A stretch of 64,000 nt of DNA from Candidatus Jordarchaeia archaeon (GTDB taxonomy: Archaea > Asgardarchaeota > Jordiarchaeia > Jordiarchaeales > Jordiarchaeaceae), in NCBI GenBank assembly GCA_029856435.1, contig JAHQXB010000063.1, positions 7,609 through 71,608 of the forward strand. Direction: 5' to 3'. A program made the position numbers and the translations under genes. Positions within the stretch are counted from its first letter, which is position 1, and every line of letters starts with the position of its first letter. Below are positions 3,720 to 53,530 of this stretch, in pieces. The notes beneath the pieces were generated by a model. The model was not told where the DNA came from, did not search any database, and saw nothing but the letters and a program-made list of their open reading frames with translations.

Positions 3720-4580
3720 ATGGGAGATATAGATTATTATAAGCGTTTAACATTAGAAGCTAAACTGATTAAACAAAAGTACAAGACACTTGGAACCGGC
3801 AGAGAAGGAAAACTCTCCAAATGGTCGGGCTACATCACAGTTAGAAATCGCCCCCTTTTTGTTTCAATTCAGATACCTGAAGATTTCCCTAACAAGCCAC
3901 CCCTCATAAAGGCCAGCGGTGTTCAAACTAATTTAAATGAGGAGTTAGGCGTTCTCAAAAATTGGAGACAAGAATACAACGTAACAGATGTTATAGACGC
4001 TCTGAGAAAATATTTAGAAGAAAAAATAGATGCAGATAAGACCACACCAAGGAGGCTGGCAGAAGAACTTCAAAGAATGATAGAAAATTCACATTTACTT
4101 ATGAGTAGATCCGAGTATGTGTCCATTAGACTCACGAGGGACACCTCCAGCCTAAGAGAATACAGATTAATGGTTGTATTCCTAAAATACTCAAAACCAA
4201 GACTTAATGGAAAAGTAATAAACATTAAACTAGTTCTCCCAGAAGAATTTCCAACGGTGAAACCAAGAATAGAAATATCCAGCGGCAAAGAAGAAATAGA
4301 TTTGAATTTGGAAAAATATTTAGAGAATCTACCGCCTATGAGGAATTGGACTCCGGATAAGCACCTATTTGAAGTTGCATTATCCATTTTAGAATTTTTT
4401 AGTAATTTTGCGATGGCAGTTTGCCCAATTTGCCTAAACAAAATTACTGCACAGGAATATGATAGCGCCATCAAATGTATAAACCCCAGATGCCGGAGCT
4501 TGTATCACAAAAATTGCTTCGAAGGCTGGATAAGACAAGGATACAAAAGAGAATGTGTGTTTTGTGACACACCAGTATAA
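3720..4580 (+). CDS. Putative E3 ligase: two UBC/RWD-like modules followed by a C4HC3 RING-type finger (FANCL-like architecture)
   Basis: 286-aa ORF. Two modules carry the UBC/RWD signature (IPEDFPNKPPLIKA and LPEEFPTVKPRIEI), neither with a catalytic Cys context. The C-terminus is CPIC-x14-C-x5-C-x4-H-x2-C-x13-CVFC. Confidence 0.6.
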   Translation: MGDIDYYKRLTLEAKLIKQKYKTLGTGREGKLSKWSGYITVRNRPLFVSIQIPEDFPNKPPLIKASGVQTNLNEELGVLKNWRQEYNVTDVIDALRKYLEEKIDADKTTPRRLAEELQRMIENSHLLMSRSEYVSIRLTRDTSSLREYRLMVVFLKYSKPRLNGKVINIKLVLPEEFPTVKPRIEISSGKEEIDLNLEKYLENLPPMRNWTPDKHLFEVALSILEFFSNFAMAVCPICLNKITAQEYDSAIKCINPRCRSLYHKNCFEGWIRQGYKRECVFCDTPV

Positions 4581-4613
4581 ATCAATAAGACATCAAGATG
4601 CCAAGAGTTTAAC

Positions 4614-5765
4614 CTATTTTATGAAGTTTAACTTGAAGGTTTTAGGGGTGGCAAGATATTTTGATATTACAAATATATTTTCGCCAGACTTCAATCCAAC
4701 ATCCTTAAGCCTGAGTTCTTCCCCCAAGGGGAAGTGCTCCCTGTATGCTATTTCGGGGTCGGGAATGGCATATCTTTGGGAAATCTGTACTTTGATGTCA
4801 AAAACCGTAGCATTTGAATCCACGTTCATTTGCTGTGCTTCGTCTCCCAACCCGCAGAGCCAACAGTCAGCTCTTCGCGTCCGAGTCAAGCAATCGAGAC
4901 CCCCGCTGATTCCGTTATATCGAAACATCTCCACACTTCTAGGTAAGCCGAGCAAAACTTTTATTGCCTCTTGGGACTGAATCCCCGCTATTATGGCGTT
5001 CGTAGTTAGGATGGCTGGTAATTTTGGAGCTATCTTTTCCTGTATTTCTTTTGCGAGTTCCTCAGAAACTCCTGGAACTGAGACCAAGTTTTTAAGTTTG
5101 GCGTATTTTAGATCAAGCTCAGTCTTGTAGCCTCTTAAAAATAACTCTTCAACAATATCAAGTGTTAAACCTTTTATTCCGTACTTTTCCAACTCGTTGA
5201 ATAAATCGCGGGGCTTGCGTCTTCTCAAAGAACACCAAACTCTCTGCTTCTCTTTGGGAGGATAACACTCATAACAGGGAGTCACGTAAGGGATTATTAC
5301 ACGTACGTGACCAAAGAAACCATGTGTACCAGCATCAATAAAGGGTTTATTTAGAGACACCGCCACTGAGTTCAGATAACGGCGGCCTTCAAAATTATCC
5401 AAACTACTCAGAAAAATATCAGCTTTCCGATACACATCAATACTAATACACTCTATATTATCATAGTAAGATTCAACTTCTACGTTGGGATTCATTTCAG
5501 TCAAGTTACGTTTAGCAGCCACAACTTTGGGTGAACCGATATCCTGGTCTCTATACAACATTTGCCTACTTAGATTGGAGAGCTCCACAACATCATTATC
5601 TATTATAATTAATTTCCCAACACCCATAAGAATCAAATTTTTTGCCGATTCGCAACCCAGAGCACCCATACCCGCAATTAAAACAGTAGAATTCATCAGT
5701 TTATCCTGATTCCAAGCAACACCCATAACATTCACAAGTTTTTGTCTATGATAACGACCCTCCAT
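4614..5765 (-). CDS. Ubiquitin-activating E1-like enzyme (ThiF/MoeB/Uba family)
   Basis: 383-aa ORF. The nucleotide-binding motif is LIAGMGALGCESAKNLILMGVGKLIIIDNDVVELSNLSRQ. Two CxxC pairs are present (CYEC, CWLC). It is the last gene of the Ubl-E2-E1 string. Confidence 0.85.
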   Translation of the reverse strand: MEGRYHRQKLVNVMGVAWNQDKLMNSTVLIAGMGALGCESAKNLILMGVGKLIIIDNDVVELSNLSRQMLYRDQDIGSPKVVAAKRNLTEMNPNVEVESYYDNIECISIDVYRKADIFLSSLDNFEGRRYLNSVAVSLNKPFIDAGTHGFFGHVRVIIPYVTPCYECYPPKEKQRVWCSLRRRKPRDLFNELEKYGIKGLTLDIVEELFLRGYKTELDLKYAKLKNLVSVPGVSEELAKEIQEKIAPKLPAILTTNAIIAGIQSQEAIKVLLGLPRSVEMFRYNGISGGLDCLTRTRRADCWLCGLGDEAQQMNVDSNATVFDIKVQISQRYAIPDPEIAYREHFPLGEELRLKDVGLKSGENIFVISKYLATPKTFKLNFIK

Positions 5766-5794
5766 GCCAAAACCCTCACAGAAGTTTCACTTTT

Positions 5795-6214
5795 CTACCA
5801 ACCCTGGTTGGCGTAGTTTAGAACATATTCCCGGGCTATTTCAAGAAATTTTTGCGGTTCCCGTCTCTGCTGGTAAGCCGCCTGTGAATTAAGGGGATTA
5901 TCAGGGTTAGGATTGTTCAGCAGCGTCCTCAGAGCTTCTATAACCCCAACAATGTTTGTCTGTGGCTTCCACTCTCTCCCCAATATTGCTATACAAACCG
6001 AAAAAGGCGGCCGATCACCGAAAGCAATATTAGGATGCCATATCCGAGTGTGCCACAAAACTTCCGGTGGCTCAAAAGGAAAACGCCGAGTAATCTTAAT
6101 CTCAACCTTAAACATTCCCCCTTCGTAGGGGGAACCGGCGGAACCGTATATTATTCCGCGCCAATGAGTTAACTTACCATTCACCGAATGGAAGGTAGGC
6201 TCCTCCCTCCTCAT
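5795..6214 (-). CDS. Ubiquitin-conjugating E2 (UBC fold). The annotated ATG probably truncates the N-terminal helix (see finding).
   Basis: 139-aa ORF with WHPNI (HPN motif) and an active-site context FSVCIAIL. Also THWRGIIYGSAGSPYEGGMF, as in canonical E2s. Helix-1-like sequence (SERYWARLALEAQR) is encoded in frame upstream of the ATG but has no start codon. Confidence 0.85.
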   Translation of the reverse strand: MRREEPTFHSVNGKLTHWRGIIYGSAGSPYEGGMFKVEIKITRRFPFEPPEVLWHTRIWHPNIAFGDRPPFSVCIAILGREWKPQTNIVGVIEALRTLLNNPNPDNPLNSQAAYQQRREPQKFLEIAREYVLNYANQGW

Positions 6215-6367
6215 CCGCTGAGCCTCTAATGCGAGCCTAGCCCAGTAGCGTTCCGAATCAAGTTGAGCAGGCGTTTAGGAACCCCCTGAAGAATTATGTT
6301 CTAAGCTTCCATGGTAAGCTAAGACCATGTCGGAATTTTGTGTCGAATAGGAAATCCTTAAATGTTT

Positions 6368-6613
6368 CTAGAAGCCACCTTCAATATCAGAACTGACATA
6401 GAATATTTTATCGCCATCTTGAACTCCAACACTTCCCAGAGGGGCATTATCATCTTGTAGTTCAATACCCCTACAGGTTAGGGTGAGAGCACTTGCTGGA
6501 ACTCCACATTGTTTAGCCACTCTCTCTTTCAGAGACTTCACACTTTCCTCTGGGTCTACCTCCATCTCAAAGGGGGCTTCCTGACCGATAGCAGGTACAA
6601 TTCGGATGAGCAT
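6368..6613 (-). CDS. Ubiquitin-like protein precursor (beta-grasp) with a C-terminal GG followed by one extra residue
   Basis: 81-aa ORF ending ...SSDIEGGF. It is ubiquitin-sized and is the first gene of the Ubl-E2-E1 string. Confidence 0.8.
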   Translation of the reverse strand: MLIRIVPAIGQEAPFEMEVDPEESVKSLKERVAKQCGVPASALTLTCRGIELQDDNAPLGSVGVQDGDKIFYVSSDIEGGF

Positions 6614-6714
6614 TGTTTAACCACCAACAACTTAACTGGTAAGTGTAAATCTTATTATATGTATTCAGAGGAAGATGAACAATTTAAAGTCTTCTCATAG
6701 AAATCTAGCTACTA

Positions 6715-6749
6715 GAAAGACAACCTAGATCACGAGAAAGACAACCTAG
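6715..6749. promoter_or_regulatory. Two direct copies of GAAAGACAACCTAG spaced 21 bp apart, upstream of the Ubl-E2-E1 operon
   Basis: Exact 14-nt copies lie at 6715-6728 and 6736-6749. A partial third copy (acaacct) lies near 6778. They sit ~100-135 bp upstream of the Ubl start (6613, minus strand). Confidence 0.3.
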
Positions 6750-6947
6750 TTTACGGACAGCAACTTCGAATGAAGTACAACCTATAATAAGAGATGTTCT
6801 AATCCGCATTTCCCATTCCTAAAAAGTGAATCTATTTGTGGGTTTCCAGCCGCAAGTATTTGTGAAAAGTAAAAGGGACGTGAAGCGTGAGTCTATCTGT
6901 CCTTTTTTAACGAAAACTAGTTGTGAAGTCTTTTGAAAATTTGTTAT

Positions 6948-7637
6948 TTATTTGGTGAGCCAGCCATATTTTTTGTATGTTTTAATTCCTTCTTTTGATT
7001 TTAGGAATTGAATGAATTTTTTCGCCGTGTCTTTGTTTTTGCAGAAGGCGGTTGCTGCTATTAGGGTGCTTCTGTAAACTTGTGCTTCTCTGGGGATTTC
7101 AATTGCGTCGAATGTTTTGGGGTGTAGAGCTTTGTAGGTATTCCATCCGAATGCCACATCCACCTTTTTTCTGACTATGGAGCCTAGTAGTTCTCCGCAT
7201 CCATCGGCGAAAAGTGTTATGTTTTTTTGTATTTCTTGTGTTAGAGCAGTTTTGCTGGCTATTTCGTCCCAGACTCCCTTTAGACTGTCTACCGTAGATA
7301 TGGCGATTTTGATGTCTTTTTTTGTTAAATCATGGAGGGATCTTATTTTTTTGGGGTTACCTTTCTGTGTTAGGATTACTGATCTTCTGTAGCCTAGGAT
7401 GCTTCTGGTTTCTCTGTCTATTAAATTATTTTTTTGTAGTTCATCCATTATGTATGCTGCTCCACAGGTAAAAACGTCGCAGAGTCCAGTTTCGATTTTG
7501 GGAATTATTTCCGATGGCAGCCCTATGGTATATTTGAGTTCCACGCCACATATTTCTTGAAATCTTTTTCCAGAAATTTTTAGGGGGGTGGCAACATCAC
7601 AGCAAGAACAAATATTTAAAACCTGCTTCTGAGACAA
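6948..7637 (-). CDS. Periplasmic-binding-protein-fold protein (ModA/molybdate-tungstate-binding-like) without an obvious signal peptide
   Basis: 229-aa ORF. General resemblance to type-2 PBP/ModA proteins (DVFTCGAAY..., ILTQKGNPKKIRSLHDL, KIAIS, DVAFGWNTY). The assignment is by motif memory only. Confidence 0.45.
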   Translation of the reverse strand: MSQKQVLNICSCCDVATPLKISGKRFQEICGVELKYTIGLPSEIIPKIETGLCDVFTCGAAYIMDELQKNNLIDRETRSILGYRRSVILTQKGNPKKIRSLHDLTKKDIKIAISTVDSLKGVWDEIASKTALTQEIQKNITLFADGCGELLGSIVRKKVDVAFGWNTYKALHPKTFDAIEIPREAQVYRSTLIAATAFCKNKDTAKKFIQFLKSKEGIKTYKKYGWLTK

Positions 7638-7773
7638 ATATTTTCTCCTCCCTTTTACGGAATGTCAGAGTTATCAATAGTTTTATAATAAAATCTAATA
7701 AAATATGCCTCATATGTGGAAATAATGGATGATGGTGTAGAGTATTTGTGGCTCTGTTATTTGAGAAAAGAAA

Positions 7774-8478
7774 GTGGCGCGTCCGCTTGGGATTGCTCGG
7801 TGGGGAAAACTTATGGTTGATGTTAGGATTTATCCTTTGACTCTTGCTAAGATTATTAGGCATAGTACAATGTTTTCGGGTATAGAAGTGGCAGGTGTTT
7901 TGATTGGGAGATTAGTGAATGGTGTAGTTGAGATTTCGGATTCGGATACCGGTCCGCAGATTGGTACAACGGGCCATGTGAAGCTGGCGAGATATGTGGC
8001 GCCACTCATTGCTGAGAAGCTTCACAGGCAGGGAAGAAGTGATTACATTGTTGGGTGGTATCACTCACACCCGGGATTTGGCTGTTTTCTTTCTCCAATT
8101 GATGTAGACACCCAATCAGGACTCCAGAAGATGTTTTCCAAATGCGTAGCGTTGGTCGTTGACCCTTATGAGTTCATTATTTCGGGTCGCCCACGTGATG
8201 CAAAAATCGAAATGTTTAGAGTTCAAGATGGTAGAATTGTTACACTGGAATATGAGGTTGTTTTTGAGACTGATAAGATTATCAGAAACTTTATTGATAA
8301 CCTAGAGAGAGGCGAGGATCAATACGTAACTTCTTTAGACAAGATTAGGTTAGAGTTTTATGAATGGAACAGAAAGTTGGAAGAAAAAGTAGGTTTTGTT
8401 ACTGAGGAAATCAAACAAATCCGTGAAGCACTGGCAAACATTCTTGAAGCACTAAAGCAAGGTAGACGAATATCATAA
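7774..8478 (+). CDS. JAB1/MPN+ (JAMM) metalloprotease, Rpn11/CSN5-like putative deubiquitinase or Ubl-processing enzyme
   Basis: JAMM motif: EVAGVLIG ... HSHPGFGCFLSPIDV (E, HxH-x7-S-x2-D). The C-terminal ~60 aa are coiled-coil-like. A more likely start is the ATG at 7813 (MVDVRIYP...). Confidence 0.85.
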   Translation: MARPLGIARWGKLMVDVRIYPLTLAKIIRHSTMFSGIEVAGVLIGRLVNGVVEISDSDTGPQIGTTGHVKLARYVAPLIAEKLHRQGRSDYIVGWYHSHPGFGCFLSPIDVDTQSGLQKMFSKCVALVVDPYEFIISGRPRDAKIEMFRVQDGRIVTLEYEVVFETDKIIRNFIDNLERGEDQYVTSLDKIRLEFYEWNRKLEEKVGFVTEEIKQIREALANILEALKQGRRIS

Positions 8479-9828: not shown

Positions 9829-10747
9829 TCACTCTTCGCCGAACAAAATTTTGGATAGTTCTTTTAGTTGTTCTATGCCCCGGATTTCTTTGTCGTAGAG
9901 GGGAACCTCTGTTATGTTAAAGTCGTCGTATAGTTCATGTATTTCTTTAAGGTTCTCTAACTGCATACTTCTACGTGCCCGACAAAAGGGACAGTTAGGT
10001 ATGTCTGGATAAACCATGTTAACGATTATGTGGTCGCAGGGGATTTCGTACTCGTTGAGAGCGGAGAGTAATCTTTCTGTCTCAAAAACAGCCATTGCTT
10101 CAGGTATCATAACAACTACGAAAGCTGTACTCTCCGGATTCGATAGTTCAGCCCGAGCCACATCAATGGTAGTCTTCAGTTTTTCCAAAACTTCCATACT
10201 GCGATCAACTTCACCGCCCTTGCCGATTAATTTTTTAAAGAGTCCCGCTAGTCGTCCAAAGTATTCCCTTATTTTTAGCATGTTAATAACCCAGCCGCTG
10301 AGTACATCTGGCAGCGATAAGAGCCTTAAGGTGTGTCCCGTTGGGGCAGTATCAAATATTACGAGGTCATACTCAGGATTTTCGATGTATTCAAGTACCT
10401 TAGCAAACGCTAAGGCCTCGTCTGCTCCTGGAGGAGTCATACCAGTTAAGCCCCCCATACTCTCCAGTAGTGATTGGGCCTGAGGCTCGGAAAAATCTCC
10501 TTGCTCCAGATTTTTCTTGTAATCCTCAAAGGCTTTATGAGGGTCAATCTCTAATCCGTAGAGATTTTTTACTCCCTTAATTTTCTTAATTTTTGGACCT
10601 ATGTGTTGGTCAAAACTATCACTTAGGCTATGGGCAGGGTCTGTACTAATGATAAGGGTTTTGAGTCCATATTCCGCTGCCCAAATAGCTGCAGCAGCCG
10701 AGCAACTGGTCTTTCCTACTCCCCCTTTTGAGGGACTAGTTAAACAT
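9829..10747 (-). CDS. Get3/ArsA-family ATPase (TRC40-like). The 5' end is anomalous (see finding).
   Basis: The track ORF 9829-10458 contains DTAPTGHTLRLL and a CPFC (CxxC) motif. My translation upstream in the same frame gives LCLTSPSKGGVGKTSCSAAAAIWAAEYGLKTLIISTDPAHSLSDSF, which is the P-loop and switch region. No ATG/GTG/TTG lies in that frame after an in-frame TAG (10750-10752). An SD-preceded ATG at 10745-10747 is out of frame. Confidence 0.8.
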
Positions 10748-10998
10748 AACTAATCTTTCCTCCGAAGAGTAGGAATTTTACTTGCCTCTCTTTTAGTAGA
10801 TCGGCTATTGTCATTGCTTACTTCCACCTGTTTTTCAGTTATGATTATGATTGGTGACATATTTACACATTTATGCTTGAATTTAAGTTTTATTCATTAG
10901 ATTCTACCTGTTTTGAGAATTAATTTTTGACCTATTACCTTGAATCGGAGATTTACAATTTATAAAGGTTGAACTTATTTGAAATCCCTGTATTTATC

Positions 10999-18788: not shown

Positions 18789-19307
18789 ATGGGTGAGGAA
18801 CCCCGGGTTGTTAAAATTTTGGTCACAGGACCTTACTCCTCTGGAAAAAGTACAGTGGTCAGCAAACTCTGCAAAGATGCAGTAAGCATAGATGCGCTTC
18901 AGACAACTGTTGGTTTTGATTTTGGTTCCAGATACGAGGAAGTCAATTTTTTGGATTTGAAGATTTTTGGAACGCCCGGACAAGAGAGGTTCAAATTTTT
19001 ACAAGAGATTTTAGCTAAGGGGAGTGCGGGTATTTTGTTAGTGGTGGATAGTACTTCTCCTGAAAATGTGGATTTAGCGAAAAATATTCTAGTGAGGATA
19101 AGGAAGGAGCTTTCAAAGAAGGTACCTGTTGTTATTCTTGCTAACAAACAGGATTTGGTAGGGGCCTTAAGCCCCGAGGAAGTTAGAAAAAAGATGGGAG
19201 TTTCGCGCAATGTCCCAGTCATAGGCACCGTGGCTCCAGAATCCATTGGTCTAAAAGAAGCTATTACAACTTTAATCAAACTAATGTTAAAGGCGGAAAA
19301 ACAGTAG
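18789..19307 (+). CDS. Small Ras-superfamily GTPase (MglA/Arf-like)
   Basis: G1 is GPYSSGKST, the switch I Thr lies in LQTTVGF, G3 is GTPGQERF and G4 is ANKQDL. 172 aa. Confidence 0.8.
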   Translation: MGEEPRVVKILVTGPYSSGKSTVVSKLCKDAVSIDALQTTVGFDFGSRYEEVNFLDLKIFGTPGQERFKFLQEILAKGSAGILLVVDSTSPENVDLAKNILVRIRKELSKKVPVVILANKQDLVGALSPEEVRKKMGVSRNVPVIGTVAPESIGLKEAITTLIKLMLKAEKQ

Positions 19308-19385
19308 ACGTAAATTAGAACTATTACTTAACTGTAAATTTGTTTTATGATGGTTTTTATTGTGTAATTCTACTGTTTTTGGATT

Positions 19386-20084
19386 CTATATTGCGGGTTT
19401 TCCACATTTTTTGCAGTACCTTGCTTTTGGGGGCAATCTTGATCCACAGTATATGCAGAAGGAAAATTCGTCGTCGTTTTCTGAGAATAGTGTGGTGCTC
19501 CCATAGTTTTGTGGATAGTTTGATTCGTTTTGATTCATTTCTTCAGAGTGGTTAAAAATGTCAGATATGGATTCTGTGGTGTGGCTTCCTTTTTCTTTGG
19601 GAGCGGGTGGGATTGAGTTGTGCTCGGTGTTTTCTGCATTTTCGAATAGGTCTGACGCTGTGATTGGTTTATTGCGGTAGGGGTATGGTTTGGCGGATTC
19701 TTTGGGTTCGCAGTATCGAGGCCCGAGGTTATTAATGTCCAGACCTTTTGAGTATTCTATGAATTTATTGTGCAAGTATGTTTTTAATCGAAAATAGTCT
19801 TCTTTAGATAAGCCCAGTAGTTCAAGTGCTCTATCTCTGTTTTCGCATGGTTTTTCTAAGCTGCAGCAGTAGGCTAAGCTACCATAACAGGTGGTTGCCA
19901 TTGCTTGTTCTTGTGGACTTTTAAATATGGGGGGTATGCGGGCACCACCAATTATTAGGACGCTCCCCTCTTCTACCTTTATGTCTGCGAAGCCTTCTGT
20001 TATTAGAGCTTGTAAAACTTGGTTTGCAGGGTAGACTCTGCCACCAATAACGATGAACCCCTCAGCCTTAGGCGCCCTTTCCAT
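19386..20084 (-). CDS. Hypothetical protein with a C-terminal zinc ribbon
   Basis: 232-aa ORF. The C-terminus is CIYCGSRLPPKARYCKKCG. The N-terminal domain is unrecognised. Confidence 0.4.
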   Translation of the reverse strand: MERAPKAEGFIVIGGRVYPANQVLQALITEGFADIKVEEGSVLIIGGARIPPIFKSPQEQAMATTCYGSLAYCCSLEKPCENRDRALELLGLSKEDYFRLKTYLHNKFIEYSKGLDINNLGPRYCEPKESAKPYPYRNKPITASDLFENAENTEHNSIPPAPKEKGSHTTESISDIFNHSEEMNQNESNYPQNYGSTTLFSENDDEFSFCIYCGSRLPPKARYCKKCGKPAI

Positions 20085-20256
20085 GCGTATCCATCCAGAG
20101 TTTAAAAGTATATTTGAAAACAGCTGTTTTAAGCAGTATTAACATTTTTACGCTTCAAATAGCGGTTCTTAAAATATTTTTTAATGTCCATATTAATAAT
20201 TGTAAATATTTTCCACGTATATTGGTTTAGCTAGTTTTTAATTAAAGGCTAGATGT

Positions 20257-20787
20257 TCATCCGCAAGGTGCTTCGGAGAGAATTATTTCTTCCCTTTTTT
20301 TAGATGTTTTCCTTTTTCTGACCATATTTCTGTTATTAATTTTTTCAGTTTTTCCCGATGGGCAGTTGTGCTTTTCGGGTAGTCTATGTTCGGCGCAGTA
20401 GTATCCGCCGCAGCGTTTACATTTGAAGGTTAAGGGAGTTATGGCCAAGCAGTAGTTGCAAGTTCCGCTGGCATATCCTAAGCGTGTCACCGTTATTTCT
20501 TCGAATTTCACCTTTTTGCCTAAGAGGAGGTATAGTCTTATTAAGATTTTTTTTGCTATTTCTTCGCACTCCTCTTTAGAAATACGCTCTTCTGGAATTA
20601 TTATGTTTATTTTATCTCCGTCCACGATGAGAGTGAGGTCTACAATTCGTCCATTGTGTTCTATGCTTCCCCGGGCAATATTTTGGCCAATAATACTTAA
20701 AGCCATTTCTGAGGTTAATCTCCGGAAGATTACTTGATTTAAGCCATTAATTAGCGCCTGAAAAATTTGATTACTCATACTTTTCAC
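20257..20787 (-). CDS. AN1-type zinc finger protein
   Basis: The C-terminus CNYCLAITPLTFKCKRCGGYYCAEHRLPEKHNC fits the AN1 pattern C-x2-C-x9-12-C-x2-C-x4-C-x2-H-x5-H-x-C. Confidence 0.7.
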   Translation of the reverse strand: MKSMSNQIFQALINGLNQVIFRRLTSEMALSIIGQNIARGSIEHNGRIVDLTLIVDGDKINIIIPEERISKEECEEIAKKILIRLYLLLGKKVKFEEITVTRLGYASGTCNYCLAITPLTFKCKRCGGYYCAEHRLPEKHNCPSGKTEKINNRNMVRKRKTSKKREEIILSEAPCG

Positions 20788-21046
20788 CCAAATTTAGCTC
20801 TTTGAAATAAAAGAGCCACTTAAAGTTTATTAAGTAATCCCAAAAAAATATATCCTGACGCTTACGCAAAAATAAATTCTAGCTATTGGATTTTAGTTAA
20901 ATATTTTATTTACTTGTGTTAACATATGTTTTTTCGGGGTACTAATTTACACTAGTTGGGCTTTTTTTATGCCCACATCAAAAGTTTTAATATGTTAGGT
21001 TAGTAGATATTCTGTAGAGAAAAAGTGAAAGGGGCTGTTAAAAGCG

Positions 21047-21841
21047 TTGTCCAGCAGCAATTTTGAACTAACCCTGGCACGGGAAACTCAACTAATGTAT
21101 CAGAGAACTCGCGGTTTTGAGCCAGTTAAAGGCGATCTTACCCGTTGGAGAGGCGAAATCGCCGGTAGAGGCGAATTCCGAGGACTTAAATTTGAGGTGG
21201 AAATTAGGGTTCCTCCCACATTCCCAATAGATCCTCCTCAAGTGTACATGATTTCTCCCACTGAGCACCCTAATGTAGATATTGAAACGGGAAGAGTTCA
21301 ACTGAATATTTTGGAGCACTGGAGACCGGAATACCACCTTTATCATGTAGTAAACACCTTGAAGGGTGCTTTTGCGAGGATCCCTCCACGTCCAGCAACA
21401 AGTCGAGTTAGATTTGGAAAAGAGGCTCCTAAGGTGACTTTAACACTGGTTGGGAAAGAGGATAAGACCGAGGAGGGAGAAGTAACTAGCTCTGAGGCCG
21501 CTTCAGAATTATCTGAGGGTGAGTCGGAAATCCAGAAACTTAGACGCTTGCTCCAGGAACGCGAGGAAGAAATAGCCATGCTACGTGGCAGATTGTCCGC
21601 TCACAATGTACCAGAAGTGGCTCAGGAGAGCGAGTCTACGTCTCTTCCTGGGGATCCCGCGTTTCGTGAAGTTCTGGATGTTGAGAGCGAGAAAATAGCT
21701 ATTGAGGACTTGATCAGGACACTTGAAGAAAAATTTGAAGCGGGGGAAGTAGGTCCAACCGAGTATGCTAAGCTATATAAGAGGTATAAGAAACAGCTGT
21801 ACATAGTAAACAAGAGACTGGAGAAGCTTTCGGCTAGGTAA
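21047..21841 (+). CDS. ESCRT-I Vps23/Tsg101-like protein: UEV (catalytically inactive E2 variant) domain plus coiled-coil stalk
   Basis: TTG start. A UBC fold with HPNV, but the active-site Cys position reads GRVQLNIL (no Cys). An acidic linker and a long coiled coil follow. It sits directly upstream of the Vps28-like gene. Confidence 0.7.
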   Translation: MSSSNFELTLARETQLMYQRTRGFEPVKGDLTRWRGEIAGRGEFRGLKFEVEIRVPPTFPIDPPQVYMISPTEHPNVDIETGRVQLNILEHWRPEYHLYHVVNTLKGAFARIPPRPATSRVRFGKEAPKVTLTLVGKEDKTEEGEVTSSEAASELSEGESEIQKLRRLLQEREEEIAMLRGRLSAHNVPEVAQESESTSLPGDPAFREVLDVESEKIAIEDLIRTLEEKFEAGEVGPTEYAKLYKRYKKQLYIVNKRLEKLSAR

Positions 21842-21864
21842 TCCGCGAGGATGGAGGATAAAAA

Positions 21865-22533
21865 ATGAAGACTGCAGAAAAATCTAGAGGGAAACAATCG
21901 AAGAACGATTTGGAAGAACATTTGGAATTAGAGGCGGAACTGTACTCTTGCATAGCTACTCTGGATATGCTGGGTAAAAATTATGATAATGGTTTAATTG
22001 ATGCCTCCACCTACAGCCGCCAAATGAGAGCCTACATCCAAAAAATTATCGACGTACGTAAAAAATTGGAAGAAAAAGGTTTTGATCTAACCAAGTTTAT
22101 AGAGCAAGAAAAAATCATAGAAAATTATCCCAACGCTGCGGTGAAGCTAAGAATTGTTAAATCCGATGAAACTGTTATGAGACCAGAGGAAGAGATACCC
22201 TTAGAAATAGTTAAGTTCTCACCAGCAAAATTAGCCACGGAAACAGCTGACCTTGTAACAAACTTCATCACATTAATAGACTGCGTCCAATTAGGAGACT
22301 ATGCCCGGGTGGATAACATAGTTCCCATAATGGATGACATAATACTCCTCATGGAAAACTACACAGGACTGAATGACAAGAACTACTGGGTTTACAAAGA
22401 GATAACCGCTTGGCGTGACAAACTCAAAAACGAGCCTCCAGACCTTGTGATTGACTCCGAAGACGCAAAAAAAATAGAGTACGACGCAGTAAGGTGGTTT
22501 AAAGACTTCCGCCAAAGAATAAGACAATTATAG
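21865..22533 (+). CDS. ESCRT-I Vps28-like protein
   Basis: The N-terminal region AELYSCIATLDMLGKNYDNGLIDASTYSRQMRAYIQK resembles the Vps28 core motif (LYAII.T.E.LEKAY.RD.I...EY) recalled from eukaryotic Vps28. The C-terminal half is helical. Confidence 0.65.
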   Translation: MKTAEKSRGKQSKNDLEEHLELEAELYSCIATLDMLGKNYDNGLIDASTYSRQMRAYIQKIIDVRKKLEEKGFDLTKFIEQEKIIENYPNAAVKLRIVKSDETVMRPEEEIPLEIVKFSPAKLATETADLVTNFITLIDCVQLGDYARVDNIVPIMDDIILLMENYTGLNDKNYWVYKEITAWRDKLKNEPPDLVIDSEDAKKIEYDAVRWFKDFRQRIRQL

Positions 22534-22551
22534 AAGAGGAGCCATAAAAAG

Positions 22552-23286
22552 ATGGGAATACGGGAATTACGCGACCGGATGGAGAAAAAAAAGTACATGC
22601 AAAAAAAGGCCACAGAATTCAAATTGGAGGAAATAAAAAGCGATTTGGAAACCGCAACAGAAACAAAAGAGAAACTGGAAGAAATCGCTAGAAAATATGG
22701 AGTCATCATAGCTACCAGTCCCAAACTACAGGATGAAATTGAAAGAATCAGAAAACAGTACGGAATACCCAACGAATCCATAATCACCCAAATAATTTCC
22801 GAAGAAGAAGTACTTAAAAGGGGAACAATGGGAATAGGAACAAAAATCGACCACGAAAAACTGGGAATGCTACTCTATCAAAGAGCCCTGCTTAAACGCA
22901 AAGAAAACGGAGGAATAATGACCTTCGCAGAAGCCTACCTACTAACAAACACGGGGAAACTCGCCCAAAAACTTGAAAACAAAGACATTGAAAAAGCAGT
23001 AAAAATACTTGAGAAAAACAAACTCATACCAGGAATACGCCAACTGAAAAGCGGAGTAAAAATAATAAGCTTCTTCCCCATAGAACTAACCGACGACCAA
23101 AACGAAGTACTAAGCATAGCAAGTAGAAGCGGAAGCGTCACCCTAGAAGAAATAATGCTAAAAACAGGTTGGACAAAAACCCGCGCACAAAGCGTACTAC
23201 AAACCCTAGAAGAAGAAGGAATAACCAGAAAAGACAAAAGCTACGCCCACGGAGAAAAATACTACTTCCCAGGATTCGTGCACTAA
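22552..23286 (+). CDS. ESCRT-II EAP30-family (Vps22/Vps36-like) protein with tandem winged helices
   Basis: An N-terminal basic helix, then GGIMTFAEAYLL... and a second wH (SGSVTLEEIMLKTGWTKTRAQSVLQTLEEEGI). It lies in a string with the Vps23-like and Vps28-like genes. Confidence 0.6.
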   Translation: MGIRELRDRMEKKKYMQKKATEFKLEEIKSDLETATETKEKLEEIARKYGVIIATSPKLQDEIERIRKQYGIPNESIITQIISEEEVLKRGTMGIGTKIDHEKLGMLLYQRALLKRKENGGIMTFAEAYLLTNTGKLAQKLENKDIEKAVKILEKNKLIPGIRQLKSGVKIISFFPIELTDDQNEVLSIASRSGSVTLEEIMLKTGWTKTRAQSVLQTLEEEGITRKDKSYAHGEKYYFPGFVH

Positions 23287-25769: not shown

Positions 25770-28700
25770 GTGGTTGAAATGAAAAACAGGAAAAAAGCTA
25801 CAGTAGCACTCATACTTTGCGCAATACTCTTCTTTACCACGGCAGTCACACTTACCAATATGATACCTTTAGCACTCCCAACTAGCCAGAATAATCCTCC
25901 CCCACCGAAGGAAAACGGAGCTTATGCAATAATCCAGATAAATGGAATATATTACAATGTAACCTGGTTTGAAATAAACAACGAAACCATGAACCAAACA
26001 ATCGAAGACAGCATCGTAGGCACAAATAACTACAGTCTTAACGTCAGCTGGAACAATAATGTTAATTGTTCAGTTGCCATGTCTTTCAACACCACGAATG
26101 ATACAATATATTTCAACGGCGTCCAACTATATATAGGGTATAATAATTCTCCACCAGCTCTCAGGGTGGAGCTAAGAAACGGAACCCAAGAGAACTCAAA
26201 ATGGGTACCAAGCAACGAAACCATAACACACAAAGAATACAGTAGTAGCAATTTTACTCAAGAGGGAAGTTGGAATACTTTACTAAATGAGACATCCATA
26301 AGACTTGTCCCATTACATACCTATTTCATACTGCTCAGGTTGGATGACACTACAGGTGAGGATAATAGTAGTTATTACTATTGGCGGTGTACTCCAGATA
26401 GCGGTAGTGATAGTGATGGTGTCGATGAGGGAAACGCACTGGCCCTAGGATTTAAAGATATAAGCGATTTAAATAACTCTGCTCTTTGGGCTGGCTGCAG
26501 TGATGATTATGACTGCTGGATGATTGTGAATTTCACGAAGCTTCAATACACTCTAAGCCTACAGCTTCCTGTGAATTGGACGCTGAGTTACCTTATGGTG
26601 GATGTTTTCAACAGTACCGGATCTTTCTTTTATCACATTTCGGATAGTGTCTCGGGGAACATTACTGGGGGTACAGGGAGCTTCAATGTTACTCTGCCTG
26701 ATGGCGATAGACTGTATCTTGCAGTTATTAAATTTACAGACATACGTCCAATTTCGTGGTTAACCGTAATTGAAGATACGAGGAATTCTGATGGCTACGC
26801 CCACACTGTAGGAAATATGAGTGAAGCTCAAAGATTTAGGTTGCCACACGACTCAAACAATCTCTCAGTGCAAATATTGATACGCAACACGGGCTTGACA
26901 GAGAATCTCATAGCGGAGATATGGAATGCCACGTTCGTTGAGTCAGTGGGTAGCTATAACCTTACAGGGAAAGTAGTTGAGTTGGATGTGCCATACTGGA
27001 ACGTTAATTCAGACTATAATTGGTATACCCTCAACTTTGAAGGCTACTTCTTGGAAGGGGACTATTTTCTAGTGATTCATACGAAGGACTGGGCGGGCGA
27101 TCCAAGTAGCGGTTTGTTTTACGATTGGGCAAGTCGTACTAGCTTTTATGAGATTCCCCCATTAGAAGGCTATGAAATATGGACTTCACAGGATAACCGC
27201 AACAATTGGAACTGGCAGGATATGCGAGACCCTTACGGTCACAGGTACTGGCATTGTATGAAGGTGGAGTCGTACAATTCAACGGACACAAGGAACATTA
27301 GTATCTGGATTAATGACAAGCTGGTTGGCAACAATTGGGTGTGGAATGATACAGTTTGGATACCGATACAAAAGACTCAGGGTGATAATGTCACCTTCAC
27401 CGTAACCAGTAATATAGACTTTGAGTATAGTTTAGACTATGACATGTATTACTATAATTATAGCTATGATTTGAATAATGAAACGCAGTTCTACGTTAAC
27501 AATTATTCCATGAGCAACAGCACCCAAGGCTATTTCGCCCAGTACTTTACCAGCAGCCAGCTGGGATACAACAGTAGCAAGGGACTGGTTAACCTGACTT
27601 TCAAGGCTTGGAACATAACCAGTAAGGAGTGGATAGTTACAAGCATTAACGCCACAATAAGCGCCTCAATGTATTACACAGAAAACATTTCGGTGCCATC
27701 TGCGACAGAACTAAACTACACTTATATACATAGCAGTGACGCTACCATTTCCCTTTCACAAGAACCCCTACACATCGACTACTCTGACCTAAATGTATGC
27801 GCAGTTGACATGGTTCAACTTAATGGCACAATCCTCTATGGCAACTGGACAAACAACACCTTAACCAGTAAGGTAACAGTGCTCAAAAACGCTTTTAACG
27901 ATACATTAATAGGGCAAGAAATCTTGGCAGGGGACAATGTAACAATCACCGTGAACTTTTACTCCATGGTAAATATTGAAACCCCAATCCTACCCTACAT
28001 TGGTGAGCCAGCCACATTAAATATTACGAATGTAATCGATACTCCTGACTACTTGAACGTAACCATAATAAGACCCAACGGCACAATACAAACGTGTCAA
28101 GGAACCAAGGTGAATAATGAGAACTGGAGCATTAGTTTCACACCTGAAGAAGCCGGAAAATACATTGCGTCAATCACCACGCAATCCACAGGTGAAAATA
28201 TAATAAGGAGAGAAGTGGCAAATCAAAGTTTAGAACAATATTACTATGTATTCAATGTATACCAATTAGGGGTGGGACTTAATAAACCTGACATTGGCGC
28301 CAAGGAAACTCTAAGCCTAGGAGTACCATATACGTTACAGATATGGGTAAGGTACTTACCATTCAACTCCTCGGAAACCCCGCAGGTTAATGTAAGTAGC
28401 ATAACAGTTTTCCTGAATGGTAGTAAAACAATAAATGATCCAGAATTCAATACTTTAACGGGATTCTGGGAGCTTACAATAATATGGAACAGCCTCTGTA
28501 ACCTAAACATCACAGTGAACGTTACTGATGATAACAATAGGATTATCGTCGAAAGTTTTGTAGTTCAAGTGGTCTTCCCAAAACCACCATCACCTATTCC
28601 CATATTATCATTGATGACAGCATATGCGGCCGTGAGTCAGTTCAATATGGACACACTGGCAAGAATCGCCACTATCGTATTCTGGCTACTAATAGTAGTT

Positions 28701-28772
28701 CTCATCTTTATGCGCGTCTTTTATCCAGATACTCTAATCAAAATCCACAAAAAGCTACTGAGAAAAACATGA
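25770..28772 (+). CDS. Large secreted surface protein with very many N-x-S/T sequons and a C-terminal TM anchor (candidate S-layer or surface glycoprotein)
   Basis: 1000-aa ORF. It has an N-terminal signal/TM segment (VALILCAILFFTTAVTL) and a C-terminal TM (IATIVFWLLIVVLIF) followed by basic residues. Sequons occur throughout (NVT, NET, NQT, NYS, NVS, NCS, NTT, NDT ...). Confidence 0.6.
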   Translation: MVEMKNRKKATVALILCAILFFTTAVTLTNMIPLALPTSQNNPPPPKENGAYAIIQINGIYYNVTWFEINNETMNQTIEDSIVGTNNYSLNVSWNNNVNCSVAMSFNTTNDTIYFNGVQLYIGYNNSPPALRVELRNGTQENSKWVPSNETITHKEYSSSNFTQEGSWNTLLNETSIRLVPLHTYFILLRLDDTTGEDNSSYYYWRCTPDSGSDSDGVDEGNALALGFKDISDLNNSALWAGCSDDYDCWMIVNFTKLQYTLSLQLPVNWTLSYLMVDVFNSTGSFFYHISDSVSGNITGGTGSFNVTLPDGDRLYLAVIKFTDIRPISWLTVIEDTRNSDGYAHTVGNMSEAQRFRLPHDSNNLSVQILIRNTGLTENLIAEIWNATFVESVGSYNLTGKVVELDVPYWNVNSDYNWYTLNFEGYFLEGDYFLVIHTKDWAGDPSSGLFYDWASRTSFYEIPPLEGYEIWTSQDNRNNWNWQDMRDPYGHRYWHCMKVESYNSTDTRNISIWINDKLVGNNWVWNDTVWIPIQKTQGDNVTFTVTSNIDFEYSLDYDMYYYNYSYDLNNETQFYVNNYSMSNSTQGYFAQYFTSSQLGYNSSKGLVNLTFKAWNITSKEWIVTSINATISASMYYTENISVPSATELNYTYIHSSDATISLSQEPLHIDYSDLNVCAVDMVQLNGTILYGNWTNNTLTSKVTVLKNAFNDTLIGQEILAGDNVTITVNFYSMVNIETPILPYIGEPATLNITNVIDTPDYLNVTIIRPNGTIQTCQGTKVNNENWSISFTPEEAGKYIASITTQSTGENIIRREVANQSLEQYYYVFNVYQLGVGLNKPDIGAKETLSLGVPYTLQIWVRYLPFNSSETPQVNVSSITVFLNGSKTINDPEFNTLTGFWELTIIWNSLCNLNITVNVTDDNNRIIVESFVVQVVFPKPPSPIPILSLMTAYAAVSQFNMDTLARIATIVFWLLIVVLIFMRVFYPDTLIKIHKKLLRKT

Positions 28773-28905
28773 ATTCTCTCATTTTTTTCATTAATTGATA
28801 GAAGAGATTTTACACCCTCCTCAACTTTAAGTCGGGACTTTATAGCCAATGATTCTGTAATTCCGTACCTCTATTTTTGGAGGGTTAAATAGAGAAAAGG
28901 AGGGA

Positions 28906-29112
28906 TGGTGCGGAGGACGAGATGTGTTCAGGGGGTAGCAGGTACCACCGCCTTTGAACTCGTGTAGGCCTATGTGAACTCCCAGATGACTGGGGGTTTC
29001 TACGCCACAGGAGCTCTGATATGCGAGTGATTTGAACTCGAAAACCTCAGTCCTGCTCCATGCCAGTCGAGCCCTTGAGGGGCGACATTTGACCTGGCTC
29101 GGAAACCTCCGC
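28906..29112 (-). tRNA. tRNA-Leu(GAG) with four introns (D-loop, 37/38, variable arm, T-loop) and an encoded CCA
   Basis: Hand-folded cloverleaf elements:
- acceptor GCGGAGG (29112-29106) / CCTCCGC (28916-28910), then A and CCA;
- D arm TCC-GAGCCAGGTCAAA...GGA;
- anticodon stem CAGGA/TCCTG with loop CTGAGG..C (anticodon 29048-29046);
- variable arm GGC-GTAG-GCC;
- T arm ACGAG-TTCAAA..T-CTCGT.
Intervening segments: 29087-29060 (28 nt), 29044-29014 (31 nt), 28999-28970 (30 nt) and 28952-28923 (30 nt). The 88-nt mature tRNA plus 119 nt of introns gives the observed 207 nt. Confidence 0.85.
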
Positions 29113-29180
29113 ACATATACATATATTGGCAAAATAGGATTACACTAAACCAGTTTTTATAAGTTTCTATGGTAGGTAAC

Positions 29181-40003: not shown

Positions 40004-41374
40004 ATGACACAAACGCAAAAAGGAGAAAAATTTGAAGTCAAAGACCTAAAACTAGCACCAAGCGGACGAGCAACAATTGAGTGGGCAGAATCAAGAATGC
40101 CCGTGCTCATGCAAATAAGAGAGAGGTTCCGAAAAGAAAAACCGCTTAAAAACACCATAGTAGGAGCATGCCTCCATGTAACAAAAGAAACAGCAGTTCT
40201 TGCAAAAACCCTGAAAGCTGGAGGTGCAGAAGTCTACCTCTGTGCCTCAAACCCCCTATCAACACAGGACCATGTAGCCGCCGCACTGGTAGAAGAAGGA
40301 ATAAACACATTCGCCTGGAAAGGCATGGACTACGAAGGCTACTACCGAGCAATAGCCAACGTTATTAAGGGAGAACCGAACATCACACTAGACGACGGCG
40401 CCGACCTAGTATCAACCTTAATCAAACTCAAAAGAGGAGAAACCGGCGAGGAAATCAAGGTAGTTAAGAAAATTCTTGGAAGCCGAACAGACTGGGCGGA
40501 CAAAGTATGGGCCGGAGCCGAGGAGACCACAACGGGCGTAATCCGCCTTAGAGCCATGGCAAAAGATAACGTGCTACTATACCCAATTATAGCTACAAAT
40601 GATACCCCCACAAAATGGGAAACATAAACACCCCCCGTGTTTAAGCCCAAATTTGACAACCTGTGGGGAACTGGGCAAAGCACCATAGACGGCATACTGA
40701 GAGCAACAGCAGACCTTATCGCGGGCAAAATTTTTGTAGTCGCAGGGTATGGCCATTGCGGTAGAGGCGTAGCGCTAAGAGCTAAGGGGCTAGGAGCGAG
40801 AAGAGTCATCATATGCGAGATAAATCCACATCGAGCCTTAACAGCCGCCTTAGAGGGTATGGAAGTAATGCCCATGAGGGAAGCCGCAGAGGTGGGAGAC
40901 ATTTTCGTAACCGCCACAGGATGCAAGAACGTCATAAATGCAGAACATATGAAAAAGATGAAAAACGGAGCAGTGATGTGTAACACAGGTCACTTTAATG
41001 TGGAAATAAATATACCTGACTTGGAGAAAATCAGCGTTAGCAAGAGAGAGATAAGACCACTAGTCGATGAGTACACACTGGAGGATGGAAGAAAAATCTA
41101 CCTACTAGCCCAAGGCAGGCTTGTGAATCTAGCATGTGCTGAGGGACACCCAAGCGAAGTTATGGACATGAGCTTTTCTGATCAGGCTTTAGCTGTGGAG
41201 TGGATTGTTAAGAATAGGGATAAGCTGTCTGGGATGGGTAGTGTGGTTTTGGATATTCCTGAAGAGATTGATAGGACTGTTGCAGAATTGAAGTGTAAGG
41301 CTATGGGTCTTAGATTAGATGTTTTGACCCCTGAGCAGGAAGCTTATTTGTCGGGCTGGGCTGAAGGAACCTAG
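40004..41374 (+). CDS. ahcY: S-adenosyl-L-homocysteine hydrolase, interrupted by a 30-nt in-frame insertion carrying a TAA
   Basis: Track ORFs 40004-40627 and 40637-41374 are in the same frame. Together they give a full AhcY ([17 protein letters not shown], ...[36 protein letters not shown]). Confidence 0.9.
40616..40645 (+). other. 30-nt insertion with an in-frame TAA and an internal hairpin inside ahcY (candidate mRNA intron; the junction is ambiguous by 1-2 nt)
   Basis: tgggaaacataaacaccccccgtgtttaag. Removing it gives NDTPTK-PK-FDN, which is the canonical ND..TK..FDN spacing. Helices tggg/ccca, caaa/tttg and aaacat/gtgttt, with an aag bulge, are visible. Confidence 0.55.
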
Positions 41375-52380: not shown

Positions 52381-53530
52381 TTAGGATACTGGACGCCAGA
52401 TAATTCCTAGTTCATCCGCTGTTTTGTATGCTTCCTCCATTTCGTGGCTAGTAACCCTTCTACATATGTCTGCATATTCCTTCCTTCTTGGCACCTCGTG
52501 TGTTGGGTGATACTGTTCCATTATGTTAACTAAAGCCTTGGGGCAATTTTTAGCCACCCATTCAAGAACCGGTTTGGTGCAACACTCAATGTGTCCCGGT
52601 AAAACTAGGTGCCTTATTATCATGCCAGATGTTCCTGGTTCCACAGTTTCATCATAGGCCATTTTATGATTTCTTGAAACAATTTCCCAGTAATTAGAAA
52701 CTTTACTCAACCTTTCTGCGCATTGATCATTCCCATATTTAAAGTCGGGGAGCCAGAAATCCATAACGTCTAATAAAAGCTTCATACATTCTTTGGAACA
52801 GTACATATTAGAATTCCATAGTTGTACAATGTTTGTTTTAGTTTCCCTTACGCCCTTTAAAATGTTGTAGGTGTTTGGAGTTGGTTCTCCACCCACATAA
52901 TTTATGTTTCTTGCACCTTCCCTCTTTAGATCTCTTGAGATTCGTGCAAGGCTCTCACCCGAAGTTTCTATACCGTTTTTTGGATTTGTGGAAATGTCAT
53001 AGTTCTGACAAAACACGCATTTAAAAGTGCAACTGGAGAAGAAGAATGCACCGTAAGAGCCTTAACTCTTAAGCGTTTGTGCCTGAAGGAACTAAAGGGG
53101 CCTCTTCTCCAGTATGTATGAATGCTGAGGATACATAAGACTCTCTGCCAAGTTTACAAAATCCTTTTTCACCCTCCAGTCTATTAGCCCCACACCGTCT
53201 TTCACAGAAATGACACTGCGATAGAATCCTTCTTGCTAGTTCCACCTTAGCATCTAAATAAGAAATCTTCGGCGAATCAATGTTTCCCAGATCCAGTTCA
53301 CCTGCATCAATCCGCCTCAAGACACTCCTAAAAACACCACTTATTCTATCATGCTCATCCCAAAGCTTGCCCAGCTCCGCATCTAGCTCAACATCTACAC
53401 CTACTTTTAAAGCTATCATAAACTTAGCATAAAGCCTATCATTGAATACCTCATAGTACCTCCAAAGCCTCTCACGAACTGTACCGTCATCCCAAACACG
53501 GTAAGCATCTGGGCGAATTAGCTTCCACAT
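52381..53530 (-). CDS. PflX-type radical SAM protein, interrupted by a 13-nt hairpin insertion just upstream of the CxxxCxxC motif
   Basis: Track ORFs 53069-53530 (…CHFCERRCGANR…HTGEEAPLVPSGTNA*) and 52381-53016 belong to one protein. My translation upstream of 53016 gives GSYGAFFFSSCTFKCVFCQNYDIS in the +1 frame. Confidence 0.8.
53062..53074 (-). other. 13-nt palindromic insertion carrying two TAA codons inside the radical SAM gene (candidate mini-intron)
   Basis: The minus strand reads ACAAAC|GCTTAAGAGTTAA|GGCTCT. The stem is CTTAA/TTAAG with loop GAG. Removing it gives ...PSGTN-GSYGAFFFSSC..., which restores the frame and the usual G-xx-GSG-x-FF spacing. The junction is ambiguous by 1 nt. 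Confidence 0.5.

Follow-up and report, generated by a model that had tools for sequence, protein, structure and literature searches.

A radical SAM gene of a Candidatus Jordarchaeia archaeon is probably interrupted by a 31-nucleotide bulge-helix-bulge intron

A 64,000-nucleotide (nt) stretch of contig JAHQXB010000063.1 from a Candidatus Jordarchaeia archaeon, called the window below, carries on its minus strand a PflX-like radical SAM gene whose reading frame is broken just before the CxxxCxxC motif. We consider it highly probable (roughly 0.85) that this gene is intact and is interrupted by a 31-nt archaeal bulge-helix-bulge (BHB) intron, which would be removed by the tRNA-splicing machinery. 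What was seen directly is the motif itself, its conservation among relatives, the exact restoration of the protein, purifying selection on both exons, and the recurrence of this design in two further genes and one tRNA gene of the window.

The open reading frame (ORF) for the N-terminal part of the protein (53530..53069, minus) ends in ...HTGEEAPLVPSGTNA, or ...EEAPLVPSGTNA in a longer reading of the same end, and is followed by TAA. A 13-nt sequence, GCTTAAGAGTTAA (53074..53062, minus), contains the palindrome CTTAA-GAG-TTAAG and two TAA triplets, and the frame encoding GSYGAFFFSSCTFKCVFCQN resumes directly after it. The sequence thereby confirms the arrangement described in a first-pass annotation of this stretch, which had also stated that removal of the 13 nt fuses the two frames. 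This deletion indeed gave a single protein of 378 amino acids (aa), which matched Pfam PF04055 (Radical_SAM) and PF13353 (Fer4_12) and weakly resembled the pyruvate formate-lyase and NrdG activases. With the fused protein as query, thousands of full-length archaeal homologues with identities of up to 65% were found among Baldr-, Odin-, Thor-, Hel- and Heimdall-type Asgard archaea and Thermoproteota, and the intact homologues all read ...EEAPLVPSGT-IFF-(T/S/A)(S/G)C. The further claim, that the 13-nt removal restores the spacing of the family, did not survive this comparison: a six-residue insertion (NGSYGA) that occurs in no homologue was left behind, together with a Phe in place of the invariant Ile. 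The 13-nt model is therefore wrong. The 13 nt are the middle of a 31-nt interruption; deletion of 31 nt yielded a 372-aa protein that aligned with the homologues without gaps. The gene is accordingly laid out as follows.

53077..53530, minus: exon 1 of the radical SAM (PflX-like) gene, starting with ATG at 53530 and ending at 53077 with base 1 of a split Ile codon
53046..53076, minus: candidate BHB intron of 31 nt, ACGCUUAAGAGUUAAGGCUCUUACGGUGCAU, with an in-frame TAA and a +1 frame shift
52381..53045, minus: exon 2, from the UC of the Ile codon through FFSSCTFKCVFCQN... to the stop codon

The RNA of this region can be written as 5'-G GCAC AAA CGC..hairpin..GCG GUGC AUU CUUC-3'. In the pre-mRNA, the exonic GCAC would pair with the intronic GUGC to form a central helix of 4 base pairs (bp), which would be followed by the AAA bulge and the inner hairpin on the 5' side and by AUU on the 3' side, the latter closed either weakly or by a long-range helix. 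The proposed elements are listed in order from the central helix.

53079..53082, minus: 5' strand of the central helix (H), GCAC, within the exon codons GGC ACA
53076..53078, minus: bulge 1, AAA, with the predicted 5' splice site between 53077 and 53076
53052..53075, minus: inner helix (h') and loop, CG..UAAGAG-UUAAGG-CUCUUA-CG, enclosing the 13 nt 53074..53062
53048..53051, minus: 3' strand of the central helix, GUGC, intronic and the same in all nine variants (see below) though non-coding
53045..53047, minus: bulge 2, AUU, with the predicted 3' splice site between 53046 and 53045
53101..53113, minus: 5' strand of a putative long-range outer helix (h), ACUGGAGAAGAGG, forming 13 bp with 53044..53032
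53032..53044, minus: 3' strand of the same putative helix, CUUCUUCUCCAGU, partner of 53113..53101

On each strand, the order of flank, 4-nt helix strand, 3-nt bulge and flank agrees with that of the canonical tRNA intron at position 37/38. Cleavage of BHB motifs falls between the second and third residues of each bulge (PMC2738675). When this rule was applied to the radical SAM gene, 53076..53046 was removed and the junction became GGC ACA A|UC UUC UUC, that is, ...PSGT-I-FFSSC. EndA, the tRNA-splicing endonuclease, would cut after the second base of each bulge and an RtcB-type RNA ligase would join the exons, so that the expected product, GGC ACA A|UC UUC, would read ...PSGT-I-FFSSCTFKCVFCQN in a normal 372-aa enzyme. 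The Asgard EndA is the (alpha-beta)2 form with an L1 loop and broad specificity, the type that cuts relaxed motifs.

In the protein search, the close relatives (83-97% identity) from Jordarchaeaceae and Jordarchaeum appeared only as C-terminal fragments of 211-233 aa, which indicated that the radical SAM gene is split there too. In the public annotations P0024, P0074 and P0015 (loci L001, L002 and L006), the downstream exon is a separate "radical SAM protein", with starts that differ and are partly non-standard. DNA of the relatives came from NCBI metagenome-assembled genomes, ENA and Logan assemblies, JGI metagenomes and chromosome CP147778.1, a curated, circularised complete genome labelled Freyarchaeota. 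The gene was broken at the identical codon in nine distinct sequence variants, which derived from independent Jordarchaeia/Freyarchaeia assemblies and from one more distant lineage. The interval between the flanks GGCACAA and TCTTC measured 27, 28, 31, 32 or 34 nt; its ends were invariant (xCGCU... and ...CGGUGCAx), and its middle varied in both sequence and length. A single cut rule placed the junction in the same Ile codon, SGT|IFF, in 9/9 variants, and every spliced coding sequence not cut short by a contig end encoded 372 aa, with a junction free of gaps relative to the intron-less homologues. The neighbouring alternative cut (ACA|...GCA|) gave Phe in 8/9 variants at the position where homologues always have Ile.

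The distant lineage, a syntenic one with 66% protein identity that carries the database label "Thermoproteota archaeon S9B3_HD70" (L009, L089), has a 27-nt intron at the same codon (3455-3481 in L009) that is in frame and carries a TGA. The presence of the intron in this lineage means either that it is old or that it was transferred with the gene. At the other homologous loci, match lengths were all multiples of three, and among the eight loci inspected (L010-L013, L017-L019 and L009) only L009 was interrupted.

The proposed structure was retained throughout the variants. GCAC and GUGC were Watson-Crick paired over 4 bp in 9/9; the bulge between GCAC and the hairpin starting CGC was AAA, or AAU in L009; and a hairpin occupied the inner-helix position in every variant, with differing sequence, length and register. 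The second base of bulge 2 was U, or A in L002, a variation that is expected since this base is intronic under the BHB rule. In 6/9 variants, the unconstrained minimum-free-energy (MFE) fold consisted of the 4-bp GCAC/GUGC helix, a 3-nt bulge and a stacked hairpin. Orthologous introns in other lineages lack the palindrome CTTAA/TTAAG. A search of the window for further copies, which the first-pass annotation had suggested, found no second exact copy, and the number of near-matches was that expected by chance (four found, 3.15 expected). We conclude that the signal of the radical SAM intron is the GCAC/GUGC helix with its 3-nt bulges, rather than the palindrome. The suggestion of a very short spliced intron was therefore right as to the kind of element, and wrong as to its size, boundaries and defining structure, which are those of a 31-nt BHB intron.

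Both exons are under strong purifying selection. Where dS could be estimated, pairwise ratios of nonsynonymous to synonymous substitution rates (dN/dS) lay at 0.05-0.11 in exon 1 and 0.04-0.07 in exon 2; synonymous sites were saturated between lineages. In the intron-bearing genes the exon bases of the central helix did not vary, also not at the third codon positions in GGC and ACA, whereas intron-less homologues vary at these codons (GGG ACA, GGC ACC, GGT ACT and others). Fixation of these bases despite saturated dS is the pattern expected if the RNA motif itself is selected.

Two further protein genes of the window showed the same design, and both introns were identified through Pfam half-matches.

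40622..40651, plus: candidate BHB intron of 30 nt in an S-adenosyl-L-homocysteine (SAH) hydrolase gene, with exons 40004..40621 and 40652..41374 and an in-frame TAA
10728..10756, minus: candidate BHB intron of 29 nt in an ArsA/Get3 ATPase gene, with exons 10814..10757 and 10727..9829, within the P-loop

The ORFs 40004..40627 and 40637..41374 are the two halves of one SAH hydrolase gene. The central helix here is formed by UGGG (40616-19) and CCCA (40646-49), with AAA as the first bulge and AAU as the second. Seven base pairs and a closing C-G pair make up the inner hairpin, and a further 7 bp (40606-12 with 40662-68) the outer helix. Splicing in silico gave TKWE|FDN, which matches the consensus of the homologues. 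Six variants of this intron, 23-34 nt in length, all gave the same junction, and one of them had a hairpin of unrelated sequence. Across the variants 94% of cells were paired, a value reached by 0/500 shuffles, and one pair varied among A-U, G-C and C-G, so that covariation lends modest support to this structure. The SAH hydrolase gene of CP147778.1 (L100) has three BHB introns, of 56, 29 and 191 nt (2036-2091, 2175-2203 and 2709-2899); in the 56-nt intron the motif, read from the sequence, comprises a CCGG/CCGG helix, an AAU bulge and a hairpin, and the unconstrained fold agrees. Additional introns were found in L097 (2645-2675, 31 nt) and L099 (2501-2695, 195 nt). The extra introns of the relatives (56, 191, 31 and 195 nt) lie at sites where the window gene has none, which points to gain or loss between close lineages, and two of them are two codons apart (GH^PS vs HPS^EV).

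In the ArsA/Get3 gene, ORF 9829..10458 matched only positions 105-304 of the ArsA profile in Pfam. GAGG and CCUC form the central helix, the inner helix extends over 9 bp, and each of the two bulges reads AAA; the unconstrained MFE fold is a textbook hBHBh' structure with z = -4.3. Removal of the intron gave FGGK|GGVGKT and a 318-aa protein covering ArsA_ATPase positions 2-304 of 305. An exact look-up for relatives of the ArsA fragment found no record.

The motif recurred in a tRNA gene as well.

28906..29112, minus: tRNA-Leu(GAG) with three BHB-type introns, 29087..29060, 29038..28978 (boundaries doubtful) and 28953..28924

The 207-nt stretch 29112..28906 became an 88-nt tRNA-Leu(GAG) after three excisions by the BHB rule, and only 1 of 2477 tested combinations worked. 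ARAGORN and Rfam found nothing in the window itself, and tRNA-Leu was recognised only when the introns had been removed by hand. This gene overlaps a spurious 101-aa ORF (28827..29132). The first bulge was AAA in all three protein-gene introns and the second was A-rich (AUU, AAU and AAA), and AA|N recurred in the tRNA-Leu introns; the three protein-gene introns otherwise shared no sequence similarity. The recurrent A-rich bulges may reflect a preference of the enzyme or a shared origin.

The BHB motif alone is not diagnostic, since a generic scan of the window gave about 900 matches per strand compared with about 790 in shuffles. When the scan was combined with a filter for ORF joining, the radical SAM intron was recovered, but gene boundaries swamped the signal. 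The other adjacent same-strand ORF pairs in the window were considered as split genes and rejected, as Pfam showed them to be separate genes.

Several observations weigh against an intron in the radical SAM gene or weaken the case for its removal. We infer cleavage, ligation and the enzymes responsible from the sequence, and neither EndA nor RtcB was located in this genome. The outer helix adjoining bulge 2 has only 1-2 bp (G-C, sometimes with an additional A-U), whereas outer helices are present in the window's other two protein-gene introns, those of ArsA and SAH hydrolase. As modelled, and as long as no long-range helix forms, the radical SAM motif is formally of the relaxed HBh' type. The long-range helix predicted in a 91-nt fold would make bulge 2 exactly 3 nt, with an 18-nt loop opposite, and its two strands lie in coding sequence that is itself under constraint. 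In the window variant, the BHB fold was not the MFE structure and lay 0.9 kcal/mol above it (91-nt context). One C-G pair of the fold is weakened in this variant, which has A at a position occupied by G in its closest relatives; with the G in place, the BHB fold was the MFE structure. Neither a covariance model nor column-wise pair counting detected covariation in the radical SAM intron; these tests were uninformative because the pairs of H and of proximal h' never vary and the distal stems shift register. Lastly, the protein collection contained no spliced full-length protein of at least 83% identity for either the radical SAM protein or the SAH hydrolase.

Other explanations of the break were weighed against the same evidence. 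In favour of a pseudogene inactivated by the insertion are the in-frame stop, the frame shift and the orthologues, which are broken as well; this reading is nevertheless scarcely credible, given that both halves remain under strong purifying selection across lineages with saturated synonymous sites, that no further stops or indels were found and complete spliced coding sequences are exactly 372 aa, and that the junction stays fixed while the intron changes in length by non-multiples of three. The inactivating lesion and the footprint of an excised element, both offered in the first-pass annotation, fail to account for the interruption of one codon in nine variants by 27-34 nt between exons that are under such selection. 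It had also considered that orthologues might prove to be broken and decaying: they are broken, and they are not decaying. A sequencing or assembly artefact might be suspected in a metagenome-assembled genome, but the identical interruption in many independent assemblies and projects, including the complete genome CP147778.1, allows this possibility to be discounted almost entirely. The 13-nt mini-intron defined by CTTAA-GAG-TTAAG, which has the restored single frame in its favour, is hardly tenable in view of its six residues without counterpart and of orthologous introns that lack the palindrome; moreover, we know of no splicing system that recognises this palindrome.

Explanations acting at the level of translation or of the protein must also be compared with splicing. 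A ribosome that frameshifts or hops across the gap in the manner of T4 gene 60, without RNA splicing, would tolerate a non-coding gap with a stop, a hairpin and a variable length. Bypassing would need matched take-off and landing codons that yield the conserved product, and there are none: ACA and GCA do not match, and a hop between the two GGC codons would yield PSG-SYGAFFF for the window sequence. Frameshifting fares no better, since lengths of 27, 28, 31, 32 and 34 nt (0, +1 and +2) mean that the shift required differs between lineages, being +1, -1 or stop read-through, and 9-11 unconserved residues would enter the protein before the Fe-S motif. As the canonical BHB geometry and its recurrence in the tRNA gene of the window point to an endonuclease, we regard recoding as very unlikely. 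Gene callers do annotate two ORFs, and the gene could be genuinely split into polypeptides of 153 aa and about 211-233 aa that assemble into an enzyme. However, the first downstream ATG/GTG/TTG in the window lies inside CxxxCxxC, so that a product starting MFCQN... retains 1/3 of the cluster cysteines; the called starts differ by lineage (TTG in one, the non-standard CTG in another); and the break falls within the invariant SGTIFF stretch. We consider a split gene extremely unlikely.

The cbf5 pre-mRNA intron, which is reportedly also treated in work by Watanabe from 2002 and by Yoshinari from 2006, allows the BHB intron proposed here to be compared with an established case. It occurs in the Crenarchaeota, in Desulfurococcales and Sulfolobales (Yokobori 2009, PMC2738675). 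Like the radical SAM intron, it is a short BHB or relaxed-BHB intron in a protein gene and is cut between the second and third bulge residues; it can be likened to the present case also in that it is cut by a hetero-oligomeric EndA, lies in the codon of a catalytic residue, and was gained and lost between lineages (PMC2738675). In that case the intron lies at the catalytic Asp codon of cbf5, whereas here it lies in a PflX-like radical SAM gene; the two would work in the same way but do not belong to the same intron lineage. The phylum there is Crenarchaeota; here it is an Asgard lineage with at least three genes affected in 64 kb and a relative with three introns in one gene. Splicing of cbf5 was shown by cDNA, while the present splicing was performed in silico only. 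A 2020 paper gives cbf5 as the only case in a coding sequence, besides one intron in a Haloferax 5' untranslated region (UTR), and in open-access papers and preprints we found archaeal mRNA BHB introns only for crenarchaeal cbf5 and the one Haloferax 5'-UTR case, and no report of Asgard mRNA BHB introns. The latter case, Haloferax volcanii HVO_1309 (PMC7714728), is similar in that an mRNA is cut at a BHB motif by the archaeal splicing endonuclease, and differs in that the intron lies in the 5' UTR, not in coding sequence, of a euryarchaeon with an alpha'2 enzyme.

The protein-gene introns proposed here have the motif of the non-canonical BHB introns in archaeal tRNAs, fall in their size range and would presumably be processed by the same enzymes (PMC11291895; Marck and Grosjean 2003). 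Such tRNA introns abound in Freyarchaeia and Atabeyarchaeia, where 92-95% of tRNA genes are interrupted, often more than once and at non-canonical positions, and introns of protein genes are unmentioned (PMC11291895). The host RNA of the introns described here is instead an mRNA, so that excision must be exact to the nucleotide to keep the frame and must precede or compete with translation. Splicing of HAC1/XBP1 mRNA likewise involves a very short intron (26 nt in XBP1) and, without a spliceosome, an endonuclease and an RtcB-type ligase. A link between RtcB and this splicing appears in the reference list of PMC6379350. There, too, removal of the intron changes the reading frame and permits an active protein to be made, but IRE1 acts on twin stem-loops in a regulated stress response, in place of the BHB found here. 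Bypassing in T4 gene 60 acts on the ribosome and needs matched take-off and landing codons. Its coding gap resembles the present one in having a stop codon and a hairpin and in being absent from the protein; it differs in that the radical SAM gene lacks the matched codons and has a BHB.

The mechanism itself is already known; the novelty lies in the lineage and the genes that host it and in how often it apparently occurs. Three of about 60 genes in the window have BHB introns in the coding sequence, each at a highly conserved catalytic motif, namely just before the Fe-S motif of the radical SAM protein, in the P-loop of ArsA and in the conserved TKWEFDN of SAH hydrolase, and a relative has up to three in one gene. 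We lean slightly towards the view that interruption of protein genes by tRNA-type BHB introns is routine in Jordarchaeia/Freyarchaeia and not an oddity of a single gene. At least three unrelated genes within 64 kb are affected, in the group closest to eukaryotes. If such introns are routine, a sizeable share of the proteome would depend on EndA/RtcB-type splicing of mRNA before translation, and this Asgard lineage would be a natural system in which to study how cells without a nucleus reconcile mRNA splicing with translation. Should RNA data bear the splicing out, the question would arise how unspliced mRNA is kept from being translated in an organism whose transcription and translation are coupled, and the explosion of tRNA introns in these genomes would be linked to their protein genes. 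Genes split by introns in these genomes are misannotated as fragments; if the introns are routine, current annotations would systematically miscall such genes as truncated or split. With splicing confirmed, the calling of these genes as fragments or pseudogenes would mean distorted metabolic reconstructions and completeness estimates of Asgard genomes.

Elsewhere in the window, a 1000-aa ORF (25770..28772, plus) had no Pfam match. The window is rich in eukaryote-like genes (3720..8478 and 18789..23286), which fits an Asgard origin. They include a ubiquitin system, with a ThiF-type E1, two UQ_con E2-like proteins, a RING protein and a JAB protease, and ESCRT-I/II-like genes (Vps23/UEV, Vps28 and EAP30), together with a Ras/Arf-type small GTPase.

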